From positions 6,282-70,281 of the forward strand of contig JBGAGQ010000028.1 of the NCBI GenBank assembly GCA_044226625.1: a stretch of DNA of 64,000 nucleotides. The letters run 5' to 3'. Positions 1,230-17,637 of this stretch are shown piece by piece. This stretch comes from Thermoanaerobaculia bacterium (GTDB lineage: Bacteria; Acidobacteriota; Thermoanaerobaculia; Multivoradales; UBA5704). Made by a program: the position numbers and the translations under genes. Each line of letters starts with the position of its first letter. Position 1 is the stretch's first letter. The notes under the pieces are model-generated. The model searched no databases. It was not told the origin of the DNA and saw nothing but the letters and a program-made list of their open reading frames with translations.

Positions 1230-3788
1230 TCACTCGTCGCGCAGCACTTCGATCGGCCGGCGTTCCAGAGCTCGTACGCTCGCCGCGAGGCCGGCGACCA
1301 CGGAGAGGGTGATCGCGAGGGCGAGCCCCAATCCGAGCCGTGGGAGGTCGATTTCGTAGGGGAGCTCGAAGCCCCGCGTGATGACCCCCCAGCTGATCGC
1401 CGCTCCGGCGGCCGTGCCGAGGAGGCCGGCGACGGCTCCGATCAGGGCGTATTCGACCGCAAACGCGGTCGCGACCTGCCGGCGCGTCATGCCGAGGGTC
1501 TTGAGCAGGGCGACCTCGCGTCCGCGCCGCACCGAGCCGGCACTGATCGCCCCGGCGAGGATGGCGATGCCGGACAGAGCGGTGAAGCCGCCGAGGAAGC
1601 GGACGCCGAGCCCGATCCGTTCGAGCACGCCGAGGATCTTGCTCAGGATCTCGCGGATGCGCAGGAAGGTGACGTTCGGGTACGCCGCGGCAAGGAGGTC
1701 CTGGACGCGCTGCTCGCTGCCGGTCGCGAGGCGGGCGGTCGCCACCCGCTGCTGCGGCGCCTGCTCGAGGACGCCGGGCTCGACCACCAGATAGAAGTTG
1801 ATGCCGAAGGTTCCCCAGTCGACCGTGCGCAGGCTGGTCACCACGAGGTCGATCGGCACCCCCTGGACGTCGAAACCGAGGTGGCTGCCGAGACCCACGC
1901 CGAGGTCCTCGGCGAACGACTGCTCGAGGCTCACCTCCCCCTGGCGGGGGTCGCTCCAGAGCTTGCCCGCGACGATCACGTTGTCGGCGGGGAGCTTCTC
2001 GAGGTAGGTGAGCCGCTGCTCGCGGGTGAGCGCCCAGCGCCGGCCGCGCTCCTCGCGGCTTTCGTTGTCGTCTCGTTCCGGGCGTCGTCCGCGCCGCTCG
2101 GCGGCGATCTGGTCGACGGGCCGGCCGTCGATCGAGCGGATGCGCGCCATCACGACGGGGACCGATTCGATCCGGTCAGCCCGAGAGCGGGTGAGGAGGG
2201 CGCGCACGCCCTCCCACTGCTCGGGCTGGATGTCGACCATGAACGCGCTCGGCGCGTTGGTCGGCAGGTCGCGCTTGAGCTCGTGGGAGATCCGGTGCTC
2301 GACCAGCGACATGGTGAGGACCGTGATCACGCCGAGCCCCAGGGCGACGATCGCACCGACCGTGGCGGCGCCCGGACGGACCAGTGCGCCGAGGCCGTGG
2401 CGTAGCGCGACGCTCGAAAATCGGGGCAGCTTGCCGATCGAGCGGGCGAGGCCGGTCGCCCCGGCGGCGAGCACCGCGGTCGCGAGGGAGAGCGCCCCGA
2501 CGAACTGGGCGGAGAGGAGCGGCGACTTGGTCTGAGCGTAGGTGAGCGCGAGCAGGCCCAGGGCGAGCGCCACGAACGCGAAAACCGCCGTCATGCGATG
2601 GACCGGCAGCGGCTCGGCGTCGCGGCGCAGCACGCGCGAGGGGGGGACGCGCAGCAGGCCGGCGAGCGGCGGCAGGCTGAACAGGAGCGCCACCCCGACC
2701 CCGAGCGCGAGGCCGCGCAGGAGCGCGCCGGGCTGCCAGGGCTGGATCAGCGCGGCGGGGACCAGGTCGCCGAACAGGCGGGGGATCGCGAGCTGGACGG
2801 CCACGCCGAGCGCGATTCCGATCAGGCTGCCGACGAGGCCGAGGAAGGCGGTCTGGCCGAGGTAGAGCGTGAGCACCTCGCGCGGCCGGAGGCCGAGGCA
2901 TTTGAGGATCGCGATCGCGTCCAGGCGTCCGGCGAGCCAGGCGCGCACGCTCTGGGCGACGCCGATGCCGCCGACGAACAGCGAGAGCAGGGCGACCAGG
3001 CCGAGGAAGCGGCCGACCTGCGCGAAGCTCCGGCGCAGCTGCGGCTGCGCCTGGCGATAGGTCTCGACGCGATAGGCCTCGTTGGCCGGCAGGGCGGCGC
3101 GCACGCGCTCGGCGAGCTTGTCGAGGCCCGCGGCCGGGGTGGAGCCGGGGACCGCGATGAGGGTCGTGTACGAGACGCGGCTCCCCTTTGCGATCAGCCC
3201 GGCGCGCGCGAGCCCCTCCATCGACAGGAACACCCGCGGGCCGAACGCCGCGCCGATGCCCACCCGGTCGGGCTCGGCCGAGACCTGGCCGGCGACGCGG
3301 AAATCCGCGGTGCCGATGCGGAAGACGAGCGGCGGACCGCCCGGCCGTTCGCGAAGCCCCAGGGCGCCGAGCAGCTCGGGCGCCACCACCGCCGTCTCGG
3401 GCGTGAGCAGCGCGGCGAGCGGCCGGTTTGGAACGACCGAGAGCTTGCCGTAGAACGGATAGCCGCGCTCGACGGCCTTGAGCTCGACGAGCTGGCTTCG
3501 GCCGGGTTTGCCGTCCTTGGGCGGCGCGGCGACGACGGTCACCATCTCGCGGACGGCGGCGGTCCGCGAGCCCGGGGGGAGCAGGCGGGAGAGGTCGAGC
3601 TCGGGAGGCAGCGCGCGGCGGCTTTCGATCGACAGATCGGCCGCGAGCAGCTGCCGCGCTTCCGAGCGGATGCCGGAGTCGAGCCCCGAGGCGAGCCCAG
3701 CGATCGCGACCACCGCGGCGACCCCCACGGCGAGGCAGGCGACGAAGAACGCGAAACGGCCGAACGCGCCGCGCGATTCGCGGAGCAT
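1230..3788 (-). CDS. ABC transporter permease, FtsX/MacB-type (YbbP-like)
   Basis: C-terminal 853 aa of the 1159-aa track ORF, starting MLRESRGAFGRFAFFVACLAV at ATG 3788. A TTG at 3815 overlapping the upstream stop is an alternative start. Repeated FtsX-like hydrophobic blocks. Lies directly downstream of the ATPase gene, as in E. coli ybbA-ybbP. Confidence 0.85.
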   Translation of the reverse strand: MLRESRGAFGRFAFFVACLAVGVAAVVAIAGLASGLDSGIRSEARQLLAADLSIESRRALPPELDLSRLLPPGSRTAAVREMVTVVAAPPKDGKPGRSQLVELKAVERGYPFYGKLSVVPNRPLAALLTPETAVVAPELLGALGLRERPGGPPLVFRIGTADFRVAGQVSAEPDRVGIGAAFGPRVFLSMEGLARAGLIAKGSRVSYTTLIAVPGSTPAAGLDKLAERVRAALPANEAYRVETYRQAQPQLRRSFAQVGRFLGLVALLSLFVGGIGVAQSVRAWLAGRLDAIAILKCLGLRPREVLTLYLGQTAFLGLVGSLIGIALGVAVQLAIPRLFGDLVPAALIQPWQPGALLRGLALGVGVALLFSLPPLAGLLRVPPSRVLRRDAEPLPVHRMTAVFAFVALALGLLALTYAQTKSPLLSAQFVGALSLATAVLAAGATGLARSIGKLPRFSSVALRHGLGALVRPGAATVGAIVALGLGVITVLTMSLVEHRISHELKRDLPTNAPSAFMVDIQPEQWEGVRALLTRSRADRIESVPVVMARIRSIDGRPVDQIAAERRGRRPERDDNESREERGRRWALTREQRLTYLEKLPADNVIVAGKLWSDPRQGEVSLEQSFAEDLGVGLGSHLGFDVQGVPIDLVVTSLRTVDWGTFGINFYLVVEPGVLEQAPQQRVATARLATGSEQRVQDLLAAAYPNVTFLRIREILSKILGVLERIGLGVRFLGGFTALSGIAILAGAISAGSVRRGREVALLKTLGMTRRQVATAFAVEYALIGAVAGLLGTAAGAAISWGVITRGFELPYEIDLPRLGLGLALAITLSVVAGLAASVRALERRPIEVLRDE

Positions 3789-3811
3789 CCAGGTCAGGAG
3801 GGTGCGCGGCT

Positions 3812-4582
<771 letters not shown>

Positions 4583-4633
4583 GGGGGTCTTTCGTGAGAC
4601 TTCCTAACCGTTCCCGCCCCTCGGGCATTTCCC

Positions 4634-5488
4634 ATGGGGCGGCGAGGTTACGATGGGGCGATGAAAAATTCCGACACGCTCCCAGGGAGACAGTACGTTT
4701 CAATTCCACTCGGTCTTACTCGGCTGGCTCGGCTCGCGGTGTTTTCCGGATTCGCCGGGTTTGCTGTCCTCTCGCTCGGCGCCTGCGGCCGATCCAATGA
4801 AAAGGTCGACGAACCGGCCGCGAAGGTCTCGCAGGATGCGGCCCCCGTGGCCTCGACGGTTGAGGAACCGGCCGGTGCCGCCCCCTCGGCCGCTTCTCTC
4901 GCCTCTCCGGGCTCGGCCCCGCCGAAGGTGCTGTTCGTGGGCGACAGCCTCACCGCCGGGCTTGGCGTGTCGGTCGAAGAGGCGTTCCCTGCGCGGGTGG
5001 GGGAGATCCTCGCCGCCGAGGGGCACCCGATCCAGGTAATCAACGCCGGGGTGAGCGGCGACGTGAGCGCCGGCGGTGTGAGTCGCATCGATTGGTTGTT
5101 GCGGCAGAAGCCGGCGGTCGTGGTGGTCGAGCTGGGCGCCAACGACGCCCTCCGCGGCCAGCCGCTCGCGGATCTCGAAAAGAACCTGCGCGCGGTCGTC
5201 GAGCGCTCCCAGGCGGCCGGGGCGAAGGTCCTGATCCTGGGCATGAGGATCCCGCCCAACTACGGCAAGGACTACGCGGACGGCTTCGAGGCGATCTTCC
5301 CCCGGGTGGCCGAGGCGACCGGCTCGGCTCTCGTCCCGTTCCTCTTGGAGGGGGTGGGAGGAGAGCCGGAGCTCAACCAGGCGGACGGCATCCATCCGAC
5401 CGTCGAGGGGCATCGGATCTTGGCGAAAACCGTCGCCCCATACCTCGCCCGCGTGCTCGAGTCGCTCGGCACGCTCGAGAGAAAGTGA
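4634..5488 (+). CDS. SGNH/GDSL hydrolase, TesA-like (arylesterase/lysophospholipase type), probable lipoprotein
   Basis: FVGDSLTAGLG (block I), GANDALRG (block III), DGIHPT (block V). Possible lipobox LSLGAC. Divergent from the ybbA-like gene, as in E. coli tesA/ybbAP. ATG 4661 is an alternative start. Confidence 0.85.
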   Translation: MGRRGYDGAMKNSDTLPGRQYVSIPLGLTRLARLAVFSGFAGFAVLSLGACGRSNEKVDEPAAKVSQDAAPVASTVEEPAGAAPSAASLASPGSAPPKVLFVGDSLTAGLGVSVEEAFPARVGEILAAEGHPIQVINAGVSGDVSAGGVSRIDWLLRQKPAVVVVELGANDALRGQPLADLEKNLRAVVERSQAAGAKVLILGMRIPPNYGKDYADGFEAIFPRVAEATGSALVPFLLEGVGGEPELNQADGIHPTVEGHRILAKTVAPYLARVLESLGTLERK

Positions 5489-5532
5489 TCGCGCCTCTTG
5501 TGATGAGCGGAGATCACGAGTATCATTTCGAC

Positions 5533-6138
5533 ATGAGCGACCGACCGTATCCGACCGGCTCGGCGTACGCCGGAGAAATCGCCGAATCGGTGGCCCTGGC
5601 CTACGGCGAGAGCCCCTGGCCGAAGGCGGACCTGATCGCCCTCGTCCGCTCCCTGCTCCAGGCCGAGTCAGTCAGCCGGCGGAGCGCCGCGACGCTGATC
5701 GAGGCGATGCTGCCGGATATGCCCGTGCCCAGCCCGGCGGCGGTGCTCCAGGCGCGGCGCAACGCGGCGGCCCGCGACCAACTACTGCGCGAGTTCGGGG
5801 GGCTGTCGAGCCGCGAGGTGGCGGAACGGGCGGGGTCGCGCGCGCGGAACCGGGCGGCCCTCGCGAACCGGTGGAAGCAGGAGGGGCGGATCTTCTCCGT
5901 ACTCCACCGCGGGGCCGAGGTCTTTCCCGGATACCAGTTCGACGAGCAGGGGCAGCCGCTCGCCGCGGTGCGCGACGTCGCCGTGGCCCTCTCGGGCCGG
6001 TCGTCGTGGGAGCTCGCCCTCTGGTTCGCGGCCGACAACGGTTGGCTGGAGGGACGCAGGCCCGTCGACCTTCTGGAGACGGAGCCGGAGGCCGTCGCGG
6101 CGGCGGCCGGGCGCGCGGCGGAGGGGATCGTCTTCTGA
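5533..6138 (+). CDS. antitoxin of a RES-Xre type II toxin-antitoxin pair (MbcA/ParS-like, DUF2384-type C-terminal domain)
   Basis: Only the last ~201 aa of the 348-aa track ORF look like protein (MSDRPYPTGSAYAGE...). The upstream part is an Arg/Gly-rich overlap of the tesA-like gene. The C-terminus (WLEGRRPVDLLETEPEAV) resembles the RES-toxin-binding domain. The gene is immediately followed by a RES gene. Confidence 0.7.
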   Translation: MSDRPYPTGSAYAGEIAESVALAYGESPWPKADLIALVRSLLQAESVSRRSAATLIEAMLPDMPVPSPAAVLQARRNAAARDQLLREFGGLSSREVAERAGSRARNRAALANRWKQEGRIFSVLHRGAEVFPGYQFDEQGQPLAAVRDVAVALSGRSSWELALWFAADNGWLEGRRPVDLLETEPEAVAAAAGRAAEGIVF

Positions 6139-6789: not shown

Positions 6790-7611
6790 CTAAAGACCCG
6801 ACCGTTTCGCCTCGTTCCAAAGTGCGTCCATCTCCTCGAGCGTAGCGTCGGCCGGGCTTTTGCCCGCCGCGGCGAGGCCGGCCTCGATCGCCTCGAACCG
6901 GCGGCGGAACTTCAGGTTCGCCCGCGCGAGGGCCGCCTCGGGATCGAGGTCGAGCTTGCGGCCGAGATTCGCCAGGGTGAACAGGAGGTCGCCGAGCTCT
7001 TCGGCGATGGCTTCGCGACTTGCGTCGCGCGTCGCCTCCCGGTCCGTGGATTCCTCGCCGCGCTCGAGCGCTTGGCGGAGCTCCCCCAGTTCTTCCTCCA
7101 CCTTGTCCAGGACCGAGGAGGCGTCCGGCCAGTCGAAGCCGACCCCTGCGGCCTTCTGGGTCAGCCGGTAGGAGGAGAGCAGGGCGGGAAGCGAGGCGGA
7201 GACCCCGGCGAGCACCGAACGGCCCGGATCTTTTTTCACCTTCCGCCGCTCCCAGGCCTCGCGCACCGCCTGGGCGTCGGAAAGGCTCGCTCGGTCCTCC
7301 TCGGCGCCGAAGACGTGGGGGTGCCGGGCGACCATCTTCGCGTGCACTCCCTCGATCGCCTGGGCGAGCTCGAACGCCCCGGCCTCCTCGGCGAGGCGGC
7401 CGATGAACGCGACCTGGAACAGGAGGTCGCCGAGCTCCGCGGCCACCTCCTCCCAATCGCCGGAGTCGATCGCGCCCGCCGTTTCATGGGCCTCTTCGAG
7501 CAGGTAGGCTCGAACATCCGCGAGCGACTGCTCGCGGTCCCACGGGCAGCCGTCCGGCGCGCGGAGGCGGGCGACGAGGTCGACGAGCTTCTGGAGGTCG
7601 GGGGCGGGCAT
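6790..7611 (-). CDS. mazG: nucleoside triphosphate pyrophosphohydrolase MazG
   Basis: 273 aa with two MazG repeats: CPWDREQS, LLEEAHE...ELGDLLFQV and EELGELRQA...EELGDLLFTL. Confidence 0.9.
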   Translation of the reverse strand: MPAPDLQKLVDLVARLRAPDGCPWDREQSLADVRAYLLEEAHETAGAIDSGDWEEVAAELGDLLFQVAFIGRLAEEAGAFELAQAIEGVHAKMVARHPHVFGAEEDRASLSDAQAVREAWERRKVKKDPGRSVLAGVSASLPALLSSYRLTQKAAGVGFDWPDASSVLDKVEEELGELRQALERGEESTDREATRDASREAIAEELGDLLFTLANLGRKLDLDPEAALARANLKFRRRFEAIEAGLAAAGKSPADATLEEMDALWNEAKRSGL

Positions 7612-7787
7612 GGATTGGAAGGGCGAAGGGCCGGAGACGCCGTAGATTGCCGGGGCGGCCTTATGATCGCCTCTACGAATCGACTTGCCGCGGGAGATTT
7701 GCGCTTGCTACGCTTTTTGTCAACGTTCGTACCTCGTTTCCCCCCTTCCACGCCGAGCTGGCTTTCGAAAGATGGGGTCCTCGCCCC

Positions 7788-8294
7788 GTGAGCGACGAAA
7801 AGATCAAGGTCACCGACAAGAGGATGTTCACGGCGGACGGCAAGCTTCGGGAGGAATACAGCTTCCTCGCCGAGCCCCGCGCGGCCGAGCCGGAGGTTGC
7901 CGAGACCGGCGCTCCCGAGGCGCCGACTCCTGCCGCTTCACCCGCTGCCCCGGCCCCTGTCGGGGCGGCCGCTACGCCGCCTCAAGGCCCTCCGGGACGC
8001 GGCGAGGAGGGCGGGAGCGCCCGCCTGGAGCTTCCCGGTACGCCGCCCGGCCTCGGTCGGCCGACGTTTTACGACCTGGTGAGCCTGCTCGCCGAGCCGA
8101 TCGCCATCTATCTCGGCGACCTCGAGCTTCCGACCGGCGAGTCGGCCGAGAATCTGGAGATGGCGCGGCTGCACATCGACCTGCTGGACGTCCTCCGGCA
8201 GAAGACGGCCGGGCATTTGAGCGTCCAGGAGGCCGCCTACCTCGAAGACCTCCTCTATCGCTCCCGGGTTCGCTATGTCCAAAAGCGGGGCTGA
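7788..8294 (+). CDS. DUF1844 domain protein
   Basis: C-terminal block PTFYDLVSLLAEPIAIYLGD...MARLHIDLLDVLRQKTAGHLSVQEAAYLEDLLYRSRVRYV is typical of DUF1844. I prefer GTG 7788 (VSDEKIKVTDKRMF) to the track start 7647. Confidence 0.65.
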   Translation: MSDEKIKVTDKRMFTADGKLREEYSFLAEPRAAEPEVAETGAPEAPTPAASPAAPAPVGAAATPPQGPPGRGEEGGSARLELPGTPPGLGRPTFYDLVSLLAEPIAIYLGDLELPTGESAENLEMARLHIDLLDVLRQKTAGHLSVQEAAYLEDLLYRSRVRYVQKRG

Positions 8295-10038
8295 GGCCCA
8301 GCCTCGTCGCGCGCTCGCCGTCCTCGGGGGCCTGGCGGTCCTGGCGGCGTTCCTCGGTCTGGGGGATGTCCGGCCGGCCGCCGCCGCGCTCGACGAGCCA
8401 CGCTTCGAGCTAGGCGACCCCGTGTCGCGCACCCTCCATCAGACCCAGGACCAGGCGGTGCAGTGGCTGGTCCAGGGCGATCCCGACAAGTCCGTCGACC
8501 GGGTGACCGACCTGCTCGAGACGACCCGCGGTCTCGGTTTCGCGCGCATCCCGGATCTCGCCCGCGGCGCGCTCCTGCGCGCGGTCGACGGCGCCCGCAA
8601 GGGAGATTTCGACCTCTCTCGCCAGGCGCTCGCCGCGGCGGAACGGTTCGATCCCGGCCGTCCGGAGATCTCGTTCGCCGCCGCGACCGTGGCGCGGATC
8701 GGCGGCCGGTATCCGACCGCGGTCGGCCAGACCTTCGTCGGCGTCTGGAGGGTCCTCACCTGGCCTTTCGAGCGTCGATTGTTTCTCGAGGGAATGTTGG
8801 TCTGGGCGTTGTGGCTGCTGCTCGCCGCGGCCGCCCTCTTCGTCGCGATCCAGTTCGCGGCTAAGGGCGGCGCGTTGCTCGCGGACGTCGGCCGGATCTT
8901 CTCCGCCCGATCGAGTCGCTTCTCCCTGCCGTTCGCGGTCGCCGTCGCGGTCTGGCCGCTCGTCCTGCCGACCGGCCTGATCTGGCTCGTGCTCTGGTGG
9001 TCGGTGCTGCTCTGGGGCTACGCCTCGGTGAGCGAGCGGGTGGTGCTCGCGAGCGCCTGGGCCCTCCTCGCGATCGCTTCGCCGGTGCTCTCCGAGCAGC
9101 GCCAGCGCCTGGCGATCGCTCTCTCCCCGCCGGCCCTCGCTCTCGACAGCCTGGAGCGCCGGGAGCTTTCGGGCGATCTGTTCAACGACCTCGGCACGCT
9201 CAGGACCCTGCTGCCGGAGAGCGTCGCGGTCCGTCAACTGGTCGCCGACGTCCACCGTCGGCTCGGTCAGTGGGAGCCGGCCCGAGAACTCTACCTGGAA
9301 GTGATCCAAAAGGAGCCGCGCAACTCCTCCGCCCTGGTGGACGTCGGTTCCTATTATCTGGTGCGCCACGAATACGAGCAGGCGATCGAACAGTACAAGC
9401 GGGCGGGCGAGGTGGACTTGCAGAGCGCCGAGGCGCAGTACAACTTGTCGTGGGCCTACCGCGGCTCGTACCGGTTCCAGGAAGCCGAGCGCGCCGACGC
9501 CGAGGCCCGGACGCGCGACCGCGCGAAGGTCGAGGGGTGGGTCCAGCGAGCCGAGCGGGTGGTGACGCTCGACGGCGGATTCGATCGCATTCCCGAGATC
9601 CGCGCCCAGCTCGAGGAGAAGCTCGCGAGCCCCGCCGCCTCCCGGCGTGGACGGGGGGATCTCCTGCGACGGTTCGGCACCGCGGGCGTCGCGCTCTCCC
9701 TGCTGCTCGTGGCGGTGGCGCTCGACGCGATCCGGCGGAACCGCTCCGGCTATAGCGACGTTCCGCTCGCGGTGAAGGTCGGTTCGCGTCCCTCGCAGCG
9801 TTGGCTTCGGGTCCTCCTGCCCGGCTTGCCGTCGGCGGAGGTGGGGGACGGCCTACGTGGGTTCGGGGCGATGCTCGGCGCCCTCGCCTTCATCTCGATT
9901 CCGTTCCTGCCTCGGCTCGGATTCCGTCTCCCCGGGGGCTTCGGGCTCGGTCAGGGGACCGCCTGGACGCTGATGCTCCTCGGCCTCGCCGTGTTCTACT
10001 TCGCACGCTACCGCTTCGATCTGGCGAACGAGATCTGA
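8275..10038 (+). CDS. multi-pass membrane protein with TPR repeats
   Basis: 587 aa with a signal-like N-terminus and several hydrophobic helices. TPR-like segment (ARELYLEVIQKEPRNSSALVDVGSYYLVRHEYEQAIEQYKRAGEVD). GC3-rich codons. Confidence 0.65.
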   Translation: MSKSGAEAQPRRALAVLGGLAVLAAFLGLGDVRPAAAALDEPRFELGDPVSRTLHQTQDQAVQWLVQGDPDKSVDRVTDLLETTRGLGFARIPDLARGALLRAVDGARKGDFDLSRQALAAAERFDPGRPEISFAAATVARIGGRYPTAVGQTFVGVWRVLTWPFERRLFLEGMLVWALWLLLAAAALFVAIQFAAKGGALLADVGRIFSARSSRFSLPFAVAVAVWPLVLPTGLIWLVLWWSVLLWGYASVSERVVLASAWALLAIASPVLSEQRQRLAIALSPPALALDSLERRELSGDLFNDLGTLRTLLPESVAVRQLVADVHRRLGQWEPARELYLEVIQKEPRNSSALVDVGSYYLVRHEYEQAIEQYKRAGEVDLQSAEAQYNLSWAYRGSYRFQEAERADAEARTRDRAKVEGWVQRAERVVTLDGGFDRIPEIRAQLEEKLASPAASRRGRGDLLRRFGTAGVALSLLLVAVALDAIRRNRSGYSDVPLAVKVGSRPSQRWLRVLLPGLPSAEVGDGLRGFGAMLGALAFISIPFLPRLGFRLPGGFGLGQGTAWTLMLLGLAVFYFARYRFDLANEI

Positions 10039-13927: not shown

Positions 13928-14311
13928 GTGGCGCGTCGAAGGAAAGCGGACGACAGCTCGTTCGTGATGATCAGCGTGGTCTCGGAGCGATTCGGAATCC
14001 ATCCGCAGACCTTGCGTCTCTACGAGCGGGAGGGGCTGATCAAACCGGTACGGAGCGCGGGCAACACCCGCCTCTACGACGAGGTGGCGATCCGCCGGCT
14101 GAAGATGATTCTCGCGCTCACCCGCGACATGGGCGTAAACCTCGCGGGGGTCGAGGTCATCCTCAACCTCCAAGAACGCCTCGACCAGGTTCAAGGCGAG
14201 CTCGACAAAGTCCTCGACTTCGTCCGCCAAGAGATGTCCGACCGCCGCGCCGGTGTCGACCGCCAACACGCCCTGGTAAAGATCGAGCGGGGGGCGTTGG
14301 TCAAGCGGTAG
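13928..14311 (+). CDS. hspR: MerR-family heat-shock transcriptional regulator (HspR-like)
   Basis: MerR HTH ISVVSERFGIHPQTLRLYEREGLIKPVRSAGNTRLY. Last gene of a dnaK operon, as for HspR. GTG start 1 nt after the hsp20 stop. Confidence 0.8.
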   Translation: MARRRKADDSSFVMISVVSERFGIHPQTLRLYEREGLIKPVRSAGNTRLYDEVAIRRLKMILALTRDMGVNLAGVEVILNLQERLDQVQGELDKVLDFVRQEMSDRRAGVDRQHALVKIERGALVKR

Positions 14312-14443
14312 ACAATCGGCCTATTGGCATATCGAATTTTTATAAAAACGATGCGGCCGTGGGGCGAATCCTGTAGATTTCTCGCGTCTAAGAGGGGAAA
14401 TTGAGAAAGGCGGTAGCTTAGGTCTTTCTCGACAGGAGAGAGA

Positions 14444-15421
14444 ATGGTCGAGGAGATTCTCTGGAGAATCCTAGTCTGGGGCAGATTGTACTTGCGGTGG
14501 GCGTTCGGATTAATTTTCAACACATGGATGATGTTTGGTTTATTTGCAACAGGGCTCCTTGCTTCGAACAGGGATGGCGCTTCTGGCTGTCTTGCTCCGC
14601 TAGTTCTGGCGTTATTGCTAGTTGGTTCAGATGTGGCCGCAGCGTTCTCTATCGAGCAGGATAGGAAGCGTGAGGCTGCCGAAAAAGATAACTTCACGGG
14701 CGGTAGATTGTTCTTTCGATACGGAGATGAGATTCACAGAGCGATATTCTCGATAAAGGTTGGAGATTCATGGTCAAAACAGCAAGTAGATTTGTTTGCG
14801 GTGAAGCTGCGGGATGAAATGGCTAGTCGTTTGGCGGCCAGGCTTTCCTGTGATCGCTGTGGAGTGAGCGCAGTCGCAATCCGAAACTCGTTAACAGGCA
14901 GTGAAAAGATCTTCCTCCGGATATTGGCTACCACTCCCCGGGGGAGTCTCGTTGCCCATTTCGCGCATTATGCACCCTTCCAAAATACGATCACGGCTCA
15001 TTATTTTACCTTTGCGCGTGGCACGGTAGGAATTCCGGAGACCATCCTCTGGGTTTTGGAGGCGCCCTACCGCATTTGGTTCTGGGGGATACCCTGGTTG
15101 TTGAACCGGTATAGCGTCCTGTCCGAGGTAAGTGATTTCAGGAATGATTCGTACGACCTCATAGACCTCCAGACGATGTACATGATGATCAGCGACAGCC
15201 TGTTGCGAGTTACGGCGGATGTGCTGCGAGACGAAGGGCTTCTCACGGAGGAGTTGCAGACCATAATTGTGAATCAACTCTTCTCGGCGCAGCAGGTGAA
15301 CATCGGTGGCCCGCGTTCTCAGTTCCTGAATGTTTCTGTGAGTGGGGACTCTTCGGTTGGGAATGTGTCCCAAGAGGCCAATGTGAACGAAGTTGGACCG
15401 TCTGGCAAAGACGTCGCGTAG
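14444..15421 (+). CDS. hypothetical multi-TM protein with a G/N/S/V/Q-rich C-terminal tail (island gene 1)
   Basis: 325 aa; AGGAGAG RBS at 14434-14440. Hydrophobic helices at about res 19-40, 49-70 and 201-220. No recognisable family motif. The tail (res 283-325) carries QFLNVSVSGDSSVGNVSQ. GC about 48-50%, against about 68% in the flanks. Confidence 0.7.
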   Translation: MVEEILWRILVWGRLYLRWAFGLIFNTWMMFGLFATGLLASNRDGASGCLAPLVLALLLVGSDVAAAFSIEQDRKREAAEKDNFTGGRLFFRYGDEIHRAIFSIKVGDSWSKQQVDLFAVKLRDEMASRLAARLSCDRCGVSAVAIRNSLTGSEKIFLRILATTPRGSLVAHFAHYAPFQNTITAHYFTFARGTVGIPETILWVLEAPYRIWFWGIPWLLNRYSVLSEVSDFRNDSYDLIDLQTMYMMISDSLLRVTADVLRDEGLLTEELQTIIVNQLFSAQQVNIGGPRSQFLNVSVSGDSSVGNVSQEANVNEVGPSGKDVA

Positions 15422-15509
15422 GGCGGCGGTTCAAAGGCCCGTGCGAGGCGTAGTTGAACTCGAGCCACGGTTGGTTATTATTTCACCGTCGTGTTGAAGT
15501 AGGGGTGCT

Positions 15510-16238
15510 ATGGCCGAGATAGAAGCCAGCCAGCGACTCAACATTCACGTCGAAGGCGGGTCAACCGTTGGGAATGTCTCACAGGTCTACGGAGCTCGCC
15601 GTAGCGAGCCGGGCCGTCGGGCAGACGACAGGTCGGTTCTGCTATTGATTGCGTCCGATCCGTACTCTCGCGACCGTCTCCGGCTGGATCTAGAAGTGAG
15701 GGCCGTTGAAGACGTGCTTCGATCATCCGGTCGTGAAGATAGCCTGGTCCTTGAACAGCTCTGGGCGCCGACTTTTTTCGATGTGCAAGAGGCCCTCCTT
15801 CGGTACCGGCCCACGTTCCTTCATTTCAGTGGCCATGGGACACCCCTCGGACAGCTGGAGTTCGAGAAGAGCCCGCGGCTGCCGAACGAGGGTAGACGCC
15901 CGAGCCAAAGCGATCAGCGAACGATTGATTCCTTTGCAGATCTCTTGAGAGGCATAGAAGGTGTGAGAATTCGTTGCTTGGTTTTGAACGCCTGCTTCTC
16001 CGAAACCCTGACGACAGAAGTTGCGGGGTGTGTGGACTGTGTGATCGGGCTCGCCGCAGAAGTCCACGACTCTGCAGCGGTCCAATTTGCTCGAGGTTTC
16101 TACGGAGGATTGGCGTGGGGGCAGAGCGTTCAGGCTGCGTTTGACCTGGGCGTCGCACAAGTGAGCTCGAAGAACGACGCGAGTCTCTATCGACTCATGG
16201 CTCCCACTTCCGATCCCCGATCCGTGAAGATGCTGTAA
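15510..16238 (+). CDS. stand-alone CHAT/caspase-fold cysteine protease-like protein (island gene 2)
   Basis: 242 aa. VLLLIASDP...RPTFLHFSGHG (His109) and IRCLVLNACFSE (Cys162) match the His-Cys dyad spacing of CHAT/caspase-like peptidases. AVQFARGFYGGLAWGQSVQAAF resembles the CHAT C-terminal helix. The N-terminal residues 8-25 repeat the tail motif of gene 1. Confidence 0.7.
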   Translation: MAEIEASQRLNIHVEGGSTVGNVSQVYGARRSEPGRRADDRSVLLLIASDPYSRDRLRLDLEVRAVEDVLRSSGREDSLVLEQLWAPTFFDVQEALLRYRPTFLHFSGHGTPLGQLEFEKSPRLPNEGRRPSQSDQRTIDSFADLLRGIEGVRIRCLVLNACFSETLTTEVAGCVDCVIGLAAEVHDSAAVQFARGFYGGLAWGQSVQAAFDLGVAQVSSKNDASLYRLMAPTSDPRSVKML

Positions 16239-16344
16239 TAGCTGTGAGGATGAAGCCTTGCCAAAGGTAACCAGCGAGCCTAACGCAACAACGCCGAAGT
16301 ACTGCTTTCTTCCGTGAGGTTGAGTCTGGAGGCATCTCTCGAGC

Positions 16345-17637
16345 CTAGCCTGCCGGTATCGGCTCGGCGAGCAGGCTTTCGATGAGCCCTTCGAATTCCT
16401 TCTTGAGATCCGTGAAGTGGGCGCCGGTCCCCGGGCCGTCGAAGCCGGAATGGATCTTTCGCACTTTGCGGTCGCGGCCGAGGAAGATGGTGGTGGGGAA
16501 GGAGGCCACTCGAGTGAGGTCGGGCAGGGCAGCGCCGGCTTCTTTCTTGTCGTTGGTTCCGGCGAGTAACAGCGGATACGAAATGCCGTAGCGTTCGCCG
16601 AAGCGGCGGACGAATTCGCGATCGCGATCAGAGTCTCCGGTCACCTCGAAAGCGAGACCGACGATCTCGAGGCCCCGGTCGCGGTAGCGCTTGTGAAGCT
16701 CGGCGAGATAGGGCCCTTCGTCGTTGCAGTTGGGGCACCAGGAGCCGAACAGGTTGACCAGCACGACCTTGCCGGCGAAGCGCGGATCGTCGAGACCGAC
16801 CGGTCGGCCCGAAAGATCGGGGAAACGGAAGCGGAAGGTTCCGTCGGGATTCGTGAGGCCGACCTCCTTCCAGGCGTCGGGGAGGACCGGTTCTCCGGCG
16901 GCGGCGCGCCGCGCGGTCCAGGTCGCGTGGTAGCTGTCTCTCGACCAGAAGTCTCCCGAGAGCGTTCCGCCCGGCTCCGCCTTCGCCTGGTACAGGAAGG
17001 CGTGGGCGCCGTCGAACGCGGAAAGGCGGAGAACTCCGTTCTCGTAGCTCCCTTCGAGGAAACGGTGATCGCCGGTCGGCGTGCGGAATGTCCCCGAGAC
17101 GCGCGAACCCTCTTGGCGTAGCTCGGCCTCGGCCGGGGAGGCTCCCTCCTCGTCCACGAACGTCACCGCCCAGGGACCCCCGATTTGGGACACCGCATTG
17201 CGGGCGTCCGCTCCGACGGAAGGGAGTTGGGCCGCGTCGGCGGGCTGGAATCGGGGAGCGGAGGCTCCTTCCGGCTCTCGCTGGGCGAGGAACGGCATCG
17301 AGACGTAGCCGGCCTTGGCCCGCTTCTCCCATTGGCCTGAAAGCCGATCCCCTTTGATTTTCGCGACGATGCGCGAGTCGTAGCCGTCGAAGCGGAGGGT
17401 GAGATCCTCGCCCCGGGTCTCCACGGCGGAAACCGGTGCGCGCTCCTCTCCGTTCTGGACCGTGGCGCGAAGCCCTTGCGCGGTCGATTCGATCTGCAAG
17501 CCGAACGGCAACTCGCCGCCGGGCGAGGTGAGGACGGCCCGCCACCGGCCGACGGGTTTCGGCGCCTTTCCACAGGCGAAGGAAAGGAATGTCAGGGACG
17601 CGAGGACGAGCGCGACGGTCGGTCGAAGGAAGCGCAT
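16345..17637 (-). CDS. TlpA-like thioredoxin-fold thiol:disulfide oxidoreductase, lipoprotein with an N-terminal extra domain
   Basis: Lipobox LSFACG. Redoxin motif VVLVNLFGSWCPNCNDEGP. 430 aa. Confidence 0.85.
   Translation of the reverse strand: MRFLRPTVALVLASLTFLSFACGKAPKPVGRWRAVLTSPGGELPFGLQIESTAQGLRATVQNGEERAPVSAVETRGEDLTLRFDGYDSRIVAKIKGDRLSGQWEKRAKAGYVSMPFLAQREPEGASAPRFQPADAAQLPSVGADARNAVSQIGGPWAVTFVDEEGASPAEAELRQEGSRVSGTFRTPTGDHRFLEGSYENGVLRLSAFDGAHAFLYQAKAEPGGTLSGDFWSRDSYHATWTARRAAAGEPVLPDAWKEVGLTNPDGTFRFRFPDLSGRPVGLDDPRFAGKVVLVNLFGSWCPNCNDEGPYLAELHKRYRDRGLEIVGLAFEVTGDSDRDREFVRRFGERYGISYPLLLAGTNDKKEAGAALPDLTRVASFPTTIFLGRDRKVRKIHSGFDGPGTGAHFTDLKKEFEGLIESLLAEPIPAG

Follow-up and report, generated by a model that had tools for sequence, protein, structure and literature searches.

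The window analysed here, a 64,000-nucleotide (64-kb) stretch of contig JBGAGQ010000028.1 from a Thermoanaerobaculia bacterium (GCA_044226625.1), contains a two-gene cassette in which a membrane protein is followed by a small protease, and the two proteins carry the same short motif at the termini that face each other. The upstream gene (gene 1) encodes an integral membrane protein of an uncharacterised family, and the downstream gene (gene 2) a predicted cysteine protease of the caspase-like CHAT fold. Two same-strand open reading frames (ORFs) 88 bp apart had been described in an earlier note made from the DNA letters alone, and the ORF listing bears out their positions and lengths of 325 and 242 amino acids (aa; Table 1). 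Both start with ATG, both are preceded in the window sequence by Shine-Dalgarno-like sequences, and together they amount to 567 residues. Across related loci the motif co-varies within each pair, and the gene 1 family keeps it in clades where the CHAT protease is replaced by other partners.

Table 1. Features of the cassette and its borders (window positions), with the partner proteins of the remote clade (positions in their own loci).
Feature	Position	Strand	Basis or remark
MerR/HspR-type regulator in the dnaK-hsp20-hspR cluster; its stop is the left islet border	13928-14311		Pfam
Low-G+C islet holding only the two-gene cassette	14312..16344	.	G+C profile, Pfam on flanks
Gene 1, integral membrane protein of an uncharacterised family, constant partner of the cassette	14444..15421	+	ORF, AlphaFold2, relatives
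Gene 1 residues ~19-70, N-terminal transmembrane helical hairpin with short loop	14498..14653	+	Kyte-Doolittle, AlphaFold2
Gene 1 residues ~84-192, conserved alpha/beta core (five-stranded sheet plus helix 112-133)	14693..15019	+	Family alignment, AlphaFold2
Gene 1 residues 197-219, aromatic hydrophobic helix ILWVLEAPYRIWFWGIPWLL (WFWGIPW)	15032..15100	+	AlphaFold2, hydropathy
Gene 1 residues 236-283, two helices ending in conserved GLLTEE, followed by the tail	15149..15292	+	Alignment, AlphaFold2
Gene 1 residues 292-310, C-terminal motif copy SQFLNVSVSGDSSVGNVSQ	15317..15373	+	BLASTP against gene 2, motif hidden Markov model
Spacer between gene 1 and gene 2, 88 bp	15422..15509	+	Longer than in relatives
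Gene 2, predicted minimal CHAT (caspase-fold) cysteine protease with N-terminal motif and flexible linker	15510..16238	+	Pfam, PDB profile, Foldseek
Gene 2 residues 7-25, N-terminal motif copy SQRLNIHVEGGSTVGNVSQ, followed by a disordered linker to about residue 41	15528..15584	+	BLASTP, motif hidden Markov model
Gene 2 residues ~42-230, CHAT catalytic core	15633..16199	+	Pfam, AlphaFold2, PDB profile, Foldseek
Codon CAT, His109, predicted catalytic, within FLHFSGHG	15834..15836	+	Sequence, alignment
Codon TGC, Cys162, predicted catalytic, within LVLNAC	15993..15995	+	Sequence, alignment
Convergent redoxin-domain gene; its stop is the right islet border	16345-17637	minus	Pfam
Small partner proteins of the remote clade	L027 5960-6271; L028 7326-7640; L029 6555-6908		Hydrophobic C-terminal end, e.g. 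WALAPLQKLFSVLLI

Gene 2 scored 28.8 bits over residues 58-210 against the Pfam CHAT family (PF12770; cut-off 24), with which its close homologues are all annotated. In the AlphaFold2 model the core is confident (predicted local distance difference test, pLDDT, ~86-97) and residues 1-38 fall below 50. A profile of the gene 2 family matched chain A of PDB entry 8TL0, a SAVED-CHAT protease, at E 7e-30, covering 8TL0 residues 286-468 only. The same entry, solved as an activated filament, was the top Foldseek match of the model (E 9e-15, query-normalised TM-score, TMq, 0.68), followed by caspase-4/-11, the CHAT domain of DdvA (E 6e-4), separase and MALT1 (range E 4e-4 to 6e-3). Neither His109 nor Cys162 varies in the family alignment or in any of the intact CHATs that adjoin gene 1 relatives, and the segments around them, HFsGHGt and vvLNAC, align with HFIGHGT and VVLNAC of 8TL0; the catalytic dyad of SAVED-CHAT is H375/C422 (bioRxiv 10.1101/2023.06.23.546230). 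On profile and model evidence we take gene 2 to be a true CHAT/caspase-fold protease with an intact His-Cys dyad, as the earlier note had proposed from the same two residues. Since only the CHAT part of the PADLOC SAVED_CHAT profile was matched (profile positions 287-479 of 498), gene 2 is devoid of a SAVED domain, and Pfam detected no effector-associated domain (EAD) in either window protein. The previous description of gene 2 as a bare catalytic domain needs correcting, since the first ~25 residues hold a conserved adaptor-type motif matching the C-terminus of gene 1.

Gene 1 is the more unusual partner. It had no match in Pfam, PADLOC or NCBIfam, in line with its earlier classification as unassignable, and 25 family members were likewise without any Pfam match at E <= 1. 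Twenty-four relatives align with it at 34-41% identity over the alignment. The family is rare, as an exhaustive profile search of 1.84 billion proteins returned 110 representatives, none of them with a Pfam domain. Where known, their sources are soil metagenomes and metagenome-assembled genomes (MAGs) of Thermoanaerobaculia/Acidobacteriota; remote clades belong to Gammaproteobacteria (Neiella marina) and to low-G+C genomes. The AlphaFold2 model (pLDDT 83, predicted TM-score, pTM, 0.78) comprises, in this order, a transmembrane helical hairpin, a five-stranded alpha/beta core, an aromatic hydrophobic helix, two more helices, and a disordered tail (residues 295-325, pLDDT <50). Hydrophobic segments at ~21-39 and ~50-68 reach Kyte-Doolittle peaks of 1.55 and 2.15, the model has helices at 2-42 and 47-79, and alignment and hydropathy reveal the hairpin across the family. 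The core, modelled at pLDDT 90-97, contains the invariant residues F84, F90, R92, G94, W110, K155, F157, G167, S168, F173, H175 and R192, and is a candidate ligand- or partner-binding domain. The aromatic helix retains invariant P208, W212 and W214; its hydropathy lies below the threshold of 1.2 in the window protein and at ~1.2 in relatives. Because this third stretch is sub-threshold, the earlier designation of gene 1 as a multi-transmembrane protein is firm for two helices only, which hydropathy and AlphaFold2 both recover. The third is more likely interfacial or membrane-associated than a full transmembrane helix, since the co-varying tail would have to reach the CHAT partner, which itself has no apparent signal peptide or transmembrane segment.

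Fold searches of gene 1 with Foldseek against the PDB and the BFVD viral models returned nothing at E <= 1e-3. START/Bet v1-like and PsbP/DcrB-like folds appeared as weak matches (E >= 2e-3, TM-score <= 0.26) and were not accepted. A gasdermin, Bell or HeLo identity was also rejected, as neither Pfam and PADLOC nor Foldseek gave a sequence or fold signal, and no helical bundle was matched. By its modelled architecture gene 1 is a constitutive integral membrane protein and not a soluble latent one, so that the gasdermin-like latent pore-former envisaged in the earlier note found no support.

The two window copies of the motif, SQFLNVSVSGDSSVGNVSQ at the end of gene 1 and SQRLNIHVEGGSTVGNVSQ at the start of gene 2, are identical at 13 of 19 positions (BLASTP E 8e-5 in a single comparison) and scored 24.4 and 29.7 bits, respectively, with a hidden Markov model (HMM) of the motif. 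The gene 1 copy lies in the tail modelled as disordered. Nearly all members of the gene 1 family carry the motif at their C-terminus, where relatives end in sequences resembling Q-x-(I/L)-x-(I/V)-x-G-S-x-G-(V/I)-S-(I/L)-G-(N/D)-(V/I)-S-Q, and the adjoining short CHATs start with the same motif. Over its ~20 residues the motif is enriched in N (x5.8), Q (x3.3), S (x2.8), G (x2.3), V (x1.7) and I (x1.3), and depleted in L (x0.32), P (x0.56) and K (x0.75). Scanning all stop-to-stop ORFs of the 64-kb window and of all locus flanks with the motif HMM revealed no third carrier but the two known ones per locus; in the window, where gene 1 and gene 2 alone bear the motif, we count this as local self-containment.

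Two minor features accompany the motif copies. The codons for VGNVSQ are identical at 15 of 17 nt between the genes (GTTGGGAATGTGTCCCA, 15356-15372, against GTTGGGAATGTCTCACA, 15567-15583), which could reflect gene conversion between the copies or a shared codon choice. Furthermore, an extra QQVNIGG segment stands just before the gene 1 copy (residues ~283-291; 15290-15316) and is conserved in the subclade of P0005, P0007, P0149, P0160 and P0196. Effector-side copies of some bacterial amyloid signalling sequence (BASS) and HET-s motifs show pseudo-repeats, and the segment may be a partial second pseudo-repeat of this sort.

The pairing claimed for the window recurs elsewhere. Besides the window, 11 non-redundant loci include downstream DNA (L001-L007, L010-L013). 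In every one of them a CHAT gene of ~240 aa lies directly 3' of the gene 1 relative, and the same adjacency was found in three further gene-called contigs (L018, L019/L020 and L026). Besides the window, 14 further pairs have the terminal motif on both partners. When the tails of gene 1 relatives were compared with the heads of the CHATs, the cognate head was the best match for 10 of 12 tails, with a mean score of 63.6 for cognate against 33.2 for non-cognate combinations, and none of 100,000 permutations reached the observed cognate sum (p <= 1e-5). This concordance extends to individual variants: both partners of L003 have SSFRDVNQ, both partners of L007 have SPGMxFSGxNQxIS, the terminal Q is lost from both partners in L013 and L019, and the motif is three residues shorter in both partners of L012 and of the window. 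Independent drift would not produce such within-pair co-variation with shared indels, which therefore indicates selection for matching, that is, for a direct homotypic interaction. Adjacency and co-variation support the view that gene 1 and gene 2 are a conserved functional pair. Chance similarity, or a functionless relic of a junction duplicated during gene fission, might be suspected from the window alone, as the single-pair BLASTP E value is only 8e-5 over a 19-residue, low-complexity-like segment; but the motif occupies the same termini across dozens of family members and in combination with three types of partner, and its co-variation is significant at p <= 1e-5, so that this explanation is effectively refuted and retains a negligible probability. 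At L005 (7884-9552), the gene 1 relative and its CHAT partner are each broken into two frames, either by pseudogenisation or by assembly errors.

The gene 1 family is the constant partner of the system: transmembrane hairpin, core and C-terminal motif are kept while the downstream partner changes. In the low-G+C clade (L030 and the contig of P0167), the downstream gene encodes a protein of 118-126 aa that consists of the matching N-terminal motif and an EAD11 adaptor. In the gammaproteobacterial clade (L027-L029), it encodes a protein of 103-117 aa without a Pfam match, whose N-terminus, GTINISVSGGSNDFGNIVQGDNN, corresponds to the membrane protein's tail, QVMNISISGGKVSMGNVVQGAMN; these proteins, which end in a hydrophobic stretch (Table 1), may be a new small effector or adaptor. 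At L030 (1452-9136; NCBI GCA_039176995.1), the gene-1-like gene and its motif-EAD11 partner are followed by genes for VWA-like, transmembrane and kinase-like/ankyrin proteins, with a protein combining AAA-ATPase_like and PDDEXK_9 domains encoded upstream, and the whole may be a larger conflict locus.

This interchangeability bears on a gasdermin-like mechanism, in which the CHAT would cleave gene 1, for example within an inhibitory C-terminal segment, to free a membrane disruptor, the motif acting as docking or cleavage site and possibly also in self-processing. Gene pairs of protease and membrane effector do exist in bacteria and fungi, the motif would tether the enzyme to its putative substrate, and the substrate channel of SAVED-CHAT takes unstructured peptides (bioRxiv 10.1101/2023.06.23.546230), which would suit two tails that are both modelled as disordered. 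However, cleavage is disfavoured because the motif persists and co-varies in the gene 1 family where the partner is no protease but the EAD11 adaptor or the ~104-aa protein. Nor does co-variation over ~20 residues with shared indels resemble the behaviour of a cleavage site; homologues of the gene 2 CHAT have N-terminal motifs in common with NLR-like (NOD-like receptor-like) neighbours; and gene 1 has no gasdermin fold or sequence match and is already embedded in the membrane. Altogether we regard such processing as improbable.

The CHAT domain, in turn, is combined with several kinds of N-terminus. Short CHATs homologous to gene 2 bear helical EADs, REC domains, transmembrane helices or other beta-type motifs, and the closest homologues carry N-terminal EADs. 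At L022 (pair also in L023), the CHAT P0105 (6001-6747; 35% identical to gene 2) is followed by a gene for an NB-ARC/TPR NLR-like protein (6894-8795), and GDVVGRDK(V/I)T occurs near the N-termini of both, which makes this an amyloid-signalling-like pair with the motif N-terminal on both partners. At L024 (pair also in L025), the CHAT P0084 (6001-6705) overlaps an upstream gene for an 884-aa protein with Ig-like domains (3350-6004), and the N-termini of both share the motif I-x-I-(G/E)-G-x-VSGQV...Q(V/I)Q. A second CHAT protein, of 689+ aa, is encoded ~4 kb further downstream at L024.

The cassette sits in a low-G+C islet among unrelated genes. The islet has a G+C content of 0.49-0.60 against ~0.67-0.70 in the flanks, with sharp borders that coincide with the stops of the two neighbouring genes (Table 1); this difference recurs in 13 of 13 loci, the cassette being lower in G+C each time. 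The islet borders bear no tRNA, no Rfam element and no meaningful direct, inverted or terminal repeat, and promoter and terminator matches within the islet were at chance level only, including a promoter-like site at 15454-15481 in the spacer. In relatives the intergenic distance ranges from a 4-bp overlap to a 15-bp gap, compared with 88 bp in the window. Surrounding genes vary among loci (MutS...patatin, kinase/FHA...VWA, Lon), and the gene-called neighbourhoods share no third gene. Rarity, a patchy distribution, varied contexts and a G+C content consistently below that of the flanks all point to the cassette being a mobile accessory unit.

These neighbourhoods raise the question of whether the cassette may have nothing to do with immunity, the pair being instead a membrane-tethered protease for housekeeping or signal-dependent proteolysis, for instance of a membrane-associated regulator, with the motif as a stable beta-strand zipper for hetero-dimerisation rather than a switchable amyloid. 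The neighbours are housekeeping or stress genes such as dnaK/hsp20/hspR, redoxin, MutS and Lon, DdvA, the Foldseek match at E 6e-4, is a transmembrane anti-sigma factor that contains a CHAT domain, and neither a defence-island context nor phage or plasmid copies were found. Yet the patchy, mobile and partner-swapping distribution disfavours this reading: the module is rare, sits in varied contexts, has a G+C content below its flanks, and exchanges partners between clades. Moreover, the closest CHAT relatives are all conflict-system effectors (SAVED-CHAT, EAD-CHAT and NLR-linked CHAT), and at L005 both genes are frame-broken, which is common for costly accessory genes. We therefore consider a housekeeping role very unlikely, somewhat more so than gasdermin-like cleavage. 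For the cassette itself, the label "defence-type" chosen in the earlier note would apply by analogy: the relatives of its parts are indeed conflict-system effectors, but the neighbourhoods are made of housekeeping genes and not of defence islands.

Fungal cell death (HET-S/NWD2) provided the first case of amyloid signalling, which was later predicted in multicellular bacteria (Bell/NLR); only recently was it shown to drive one antiphage system of E. coli (Bab/Agp). In BASS pairs, a Bell-domain protein is coupled to an NLR by motifs of ~20-25 residues that are rich in Q, N, G, V and I and poor in K, P and L, and CHAT is already listed among the BASS-associated domains (Dyrka et al., bioRxiv 10.1101/2020.01.06.895854). 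The cassette resembles these pairs in that its genes are adjacent and collinear, the upstream, membrane-related protein carries the motif C-terminally and the downstream one N-terminally, the composition is N/Q/G/V/I-rich and K/P/L-poor, and the motifs within a pair are highly similar, a likeness judged by the published description (position, composition and length). In contrast to BASS pairs, the downstream partner is a bare CHAT and not an NB-ARC/NACHT NLR or another large sensor, and gene 1, with its transmembrane hairpin and new alpha/beta core, differs from the soluble helical Bell, HeLo and Hell domains. Furthermore, in the described BASS cases with CHAT the motif is C-terminal to the CHAT domain and the partner is an NLR, whereas here it is N-terminal, and BASS work stresses filamentous Actinobacteria and Cyanobacteria, whereas the hosts of the cassette are Thermoanaerobaculia/Acidobacteriota MAGs.

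Bab/Agp, an experimentally established abortive-infection antiphage system with the BASS11 motif (Ibarlosa et al., bioRxiv 10.1101/2024.11.07.622273), is comparable in being a two-gene pair without an NLR, in which an upstream C-terminal motif of ~20 aa meets a downstream N-terminal copy. BASS11 also occurs with CHAT, TIR, EAD7, NACHT and NB-ARC in adjacent genes (bioRxiv 10.1101/2024.11.07.622273). However, Bab is a helical, Bell-related protein of 109 aa, Agp is a TPR-GreA/B-C-PIN sensor of 1094 aa, and the cassette loci show no defence-island or prophage context. The closest solved relative of gene 2, the SAVED-CHAT of a type III-B CRISPR/CBASS-like (cyclic-oligonucleotide-based antiphage signalling system-like) cascade (PDB 8TL0), is monomeric and inactive until cyclic tri-adenylate (cA3) drives it into filaments (bioRxiv 10.1101/2023.06.23.546230), and oligomerisation is also the activating step proposed here for the cassette. 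Gene 2 differs in having a motif of ~25 residues and a linker in place of SAVED, and no cyclase or CRISPR genes lie nearby.

The pairs are also reminiscent of EAD coupling, in which the effector and the core component encoded by adjacent genes carry a small adaptor that is more alike within than between loci (Kaur et al. 2020, PMC7159879; Kaur et al. 2021, PMC8195603). The homotypic adaptor logic and the locus-specific similarity are alike if the motif is taken in place of an EAD, and the sister clade has a motif-EAD11 partner, but the adaptor of the cassette is a short beta-type motif and not a helical or death-like domain. A core NTPase of the STAND, MoxR-vWA or GTPase type is absent, the neighbours in the window, L018, L019 and L026 being unrelated housekeeping genes. 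With operons of bacterial gasdermins and caspase-like proteases the cassette has in common that a protease gene adjoins the gene of a membrane-acting protein, and an outcome of regulated cell death is plausible for both; unlike the gasdermins, gene 1 has no gasdermin sequence or fold and resides constitutively in the membrane, and coupling relies on the shared terminal motif and not on a known cleavage site. In the pattern (I/V)-x-(I/V)-x-(N/G)-S-x-G-V-x-(I/L)-G-N the motif superficially resembles RHIM, BASS3 and fungal PP motifs. Membership in the RHIM/BASS3 group was nevertheless rejected, as the window motifs and 10 other family tails gave no match to Pfam RHIM (PF12721, with its (I/V)Q(I/V)G core; cut-off 20 bits), with which RIPK1 and RIPK3 control sequences scored 26 and 43 bits; the partner motif of the sister clade, QNISIKNSKGVQIGN of L030, reached 19.8 bits. 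A described system with exactly this architecture was found neither in PADLOC nor in the literature searched, which agrees with the novelty that the earlier note had claimed.

With slightly more confidence than doubt, we suggest that the cassette is a self-contained module in which a cross-beta motif couples a membrane protein on the sensor side to a CHAT effector activated by oligomerisation. It is probably an NLR-less variant of the amyloid-controlled cell-death or defence modules known from fungi and bacteria. At rest, both tails would be disordered and the protease monomeric and inactive. A trigger, probably sensed at or through gene 1, would cluster the gene 1 tails, which would then adopt a cooperative cross-beta fold of the amyloid-signalling type and template the matching N-terminal motif of the CHAT protein. 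CHAT protomers would thus be recruited to and concentrated at the membrane and be activated by induced oligomerisation, and the outcome may be growth arrest or cell death driven by proteolysis, possibly together with membrane damage from clustered transmembrane hairpins. We prefer this clustering model because SAVED-CHAT is activated by filaments and gene 2 has a motif and a linker instead of SAVED. Gene 1 would take the place held by the NLR or another sensor in known amyloid-signalling pairs, and the CHAT would be the effector; this assignment is preferred because gene 1 is constant across clades, CHAT homologues are effectors elsewhere, and the CHAT dyad is strictly conserved. A broader proposal, which we put forward tentatively and with more reserve than the module itself, is that the gene 1 family forms a hitherto unrecognised class of membrane-embedded nucleators, neither NLRs nor NTPases, that would detect a membrane-proximal cue and switch on interchangeable modules through a rapidly co-evolving cross-beta motif of ~20 residues.

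Several points weigh against amyloid-type coupling of a gene 1 sensor to a CHAT effector. The AlphaFold2 monomers show the tails as disordered and no cross-beta structure, and the window motif, as said, does not match Pfam RHIM. No sensor domain was recognisable in gene 1 or gene 2 by Pfam, PADLOC or the models, and no complete PADLOC system was matched. Tblastn found no gene 1 match in phage and plasmid collections, and the neighbourhoods in the window and at the gene-called loci consist of housekeeping genes. Most pertinently, in characterised pairs the C-terminal motif is on the membrane executioner and the N-terminal motif on its activator (bioRxiv 10.1101/2020.01.06.895854; 10.1101/2024.11.07.622273), and by this rule gene 1 would be the effector and not the sensor.

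Applied to the cassette, this classical polarity would make the CHAT the upstream activator, self-oligomerising on a cue or bridged to a sensor encoded elsewhere, with its N-terminal motif nucleating the fold, and gene 1 the executioner, whose C-terminal motif would be templated and whose transmembrane hairpins would cluster and permeabilise the membrane. HET-S/NWD2, Bell/NLR and Bab/Agp all have the protein with the C-terminal motif encoded upstream and acting as a membrane-targeting killer; gene 1 is a membrane protein encoded upstream, and the motif-EAD11 partner of L030 could bridge gene-1-like executioners to larger EAD-based systems (PMC8195603). On the other hand, motif, linker and protease core make up the whole of the 242-aa CHAT and leave no evident domain for sensing. 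Its homologues serve as effectors in systems coupled through SAVED, EADs or NLRs, and a pure nucleator would have no need of its strictly conserved catalytic dyad. In addition, gene 1 lacks similarity to Bell, HeLo and gasdermin, and it is unlikely that the ~104-aa partners in the remote clade act as sensors. Weighing both sides, we consider the classical polarity the main, though rather unlikely, alternative to gene 1 as sensor.

If gene 1 signals to the CHAT through a cross-beta motif, the cassette would extend amyloid signalling to a rare new integral membrane family, to a protease-only partner without an NLR or large sensor, and to Acidobacteriota and other unicellular lineages. Should cross-beta templating activate the protease, the very small pair would lend itself as a compact model for the activation of caspase-fold enzymes by higher-order assembly, and as a compact switch that can be reprogrammed. 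Under the broader nucleator proposal, the module switched on would differ between hosts: in Acidobacteriota it would be the minimal caspase-like protease, in low-G+C genomes the EAD11 adaptor, and in Gammaproteobacteria the ~104-aa protein. This would then be the first case of amyloid templating of caspase-fold protease activation in prokaryotes, and a minimal bacterial counterpart of the filament-induced caspase activation in animal inflammasomes and death-fold signalling. Even if the pair were a simple tethered protease complex, it would still define a new protein family with a conserved partner.

Irrespective of polarity, the families provide a natural experiment in modularity, as one membrane protein is found with three motif-matched partners and one CHAT domain with several N-terminal motifs, and the pair-specific motif variants could directly be used in specificity-swap work. 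Another type of rearrangement is seen in P0245 (639 aa) and P0248 (727 aa), in which remote gene-1-like cores are joined to a C-terminal extension of ~400 aa that has neither a Pfam domain nor the terminal motif; these fusions may be an "all-in-one" version of the system.

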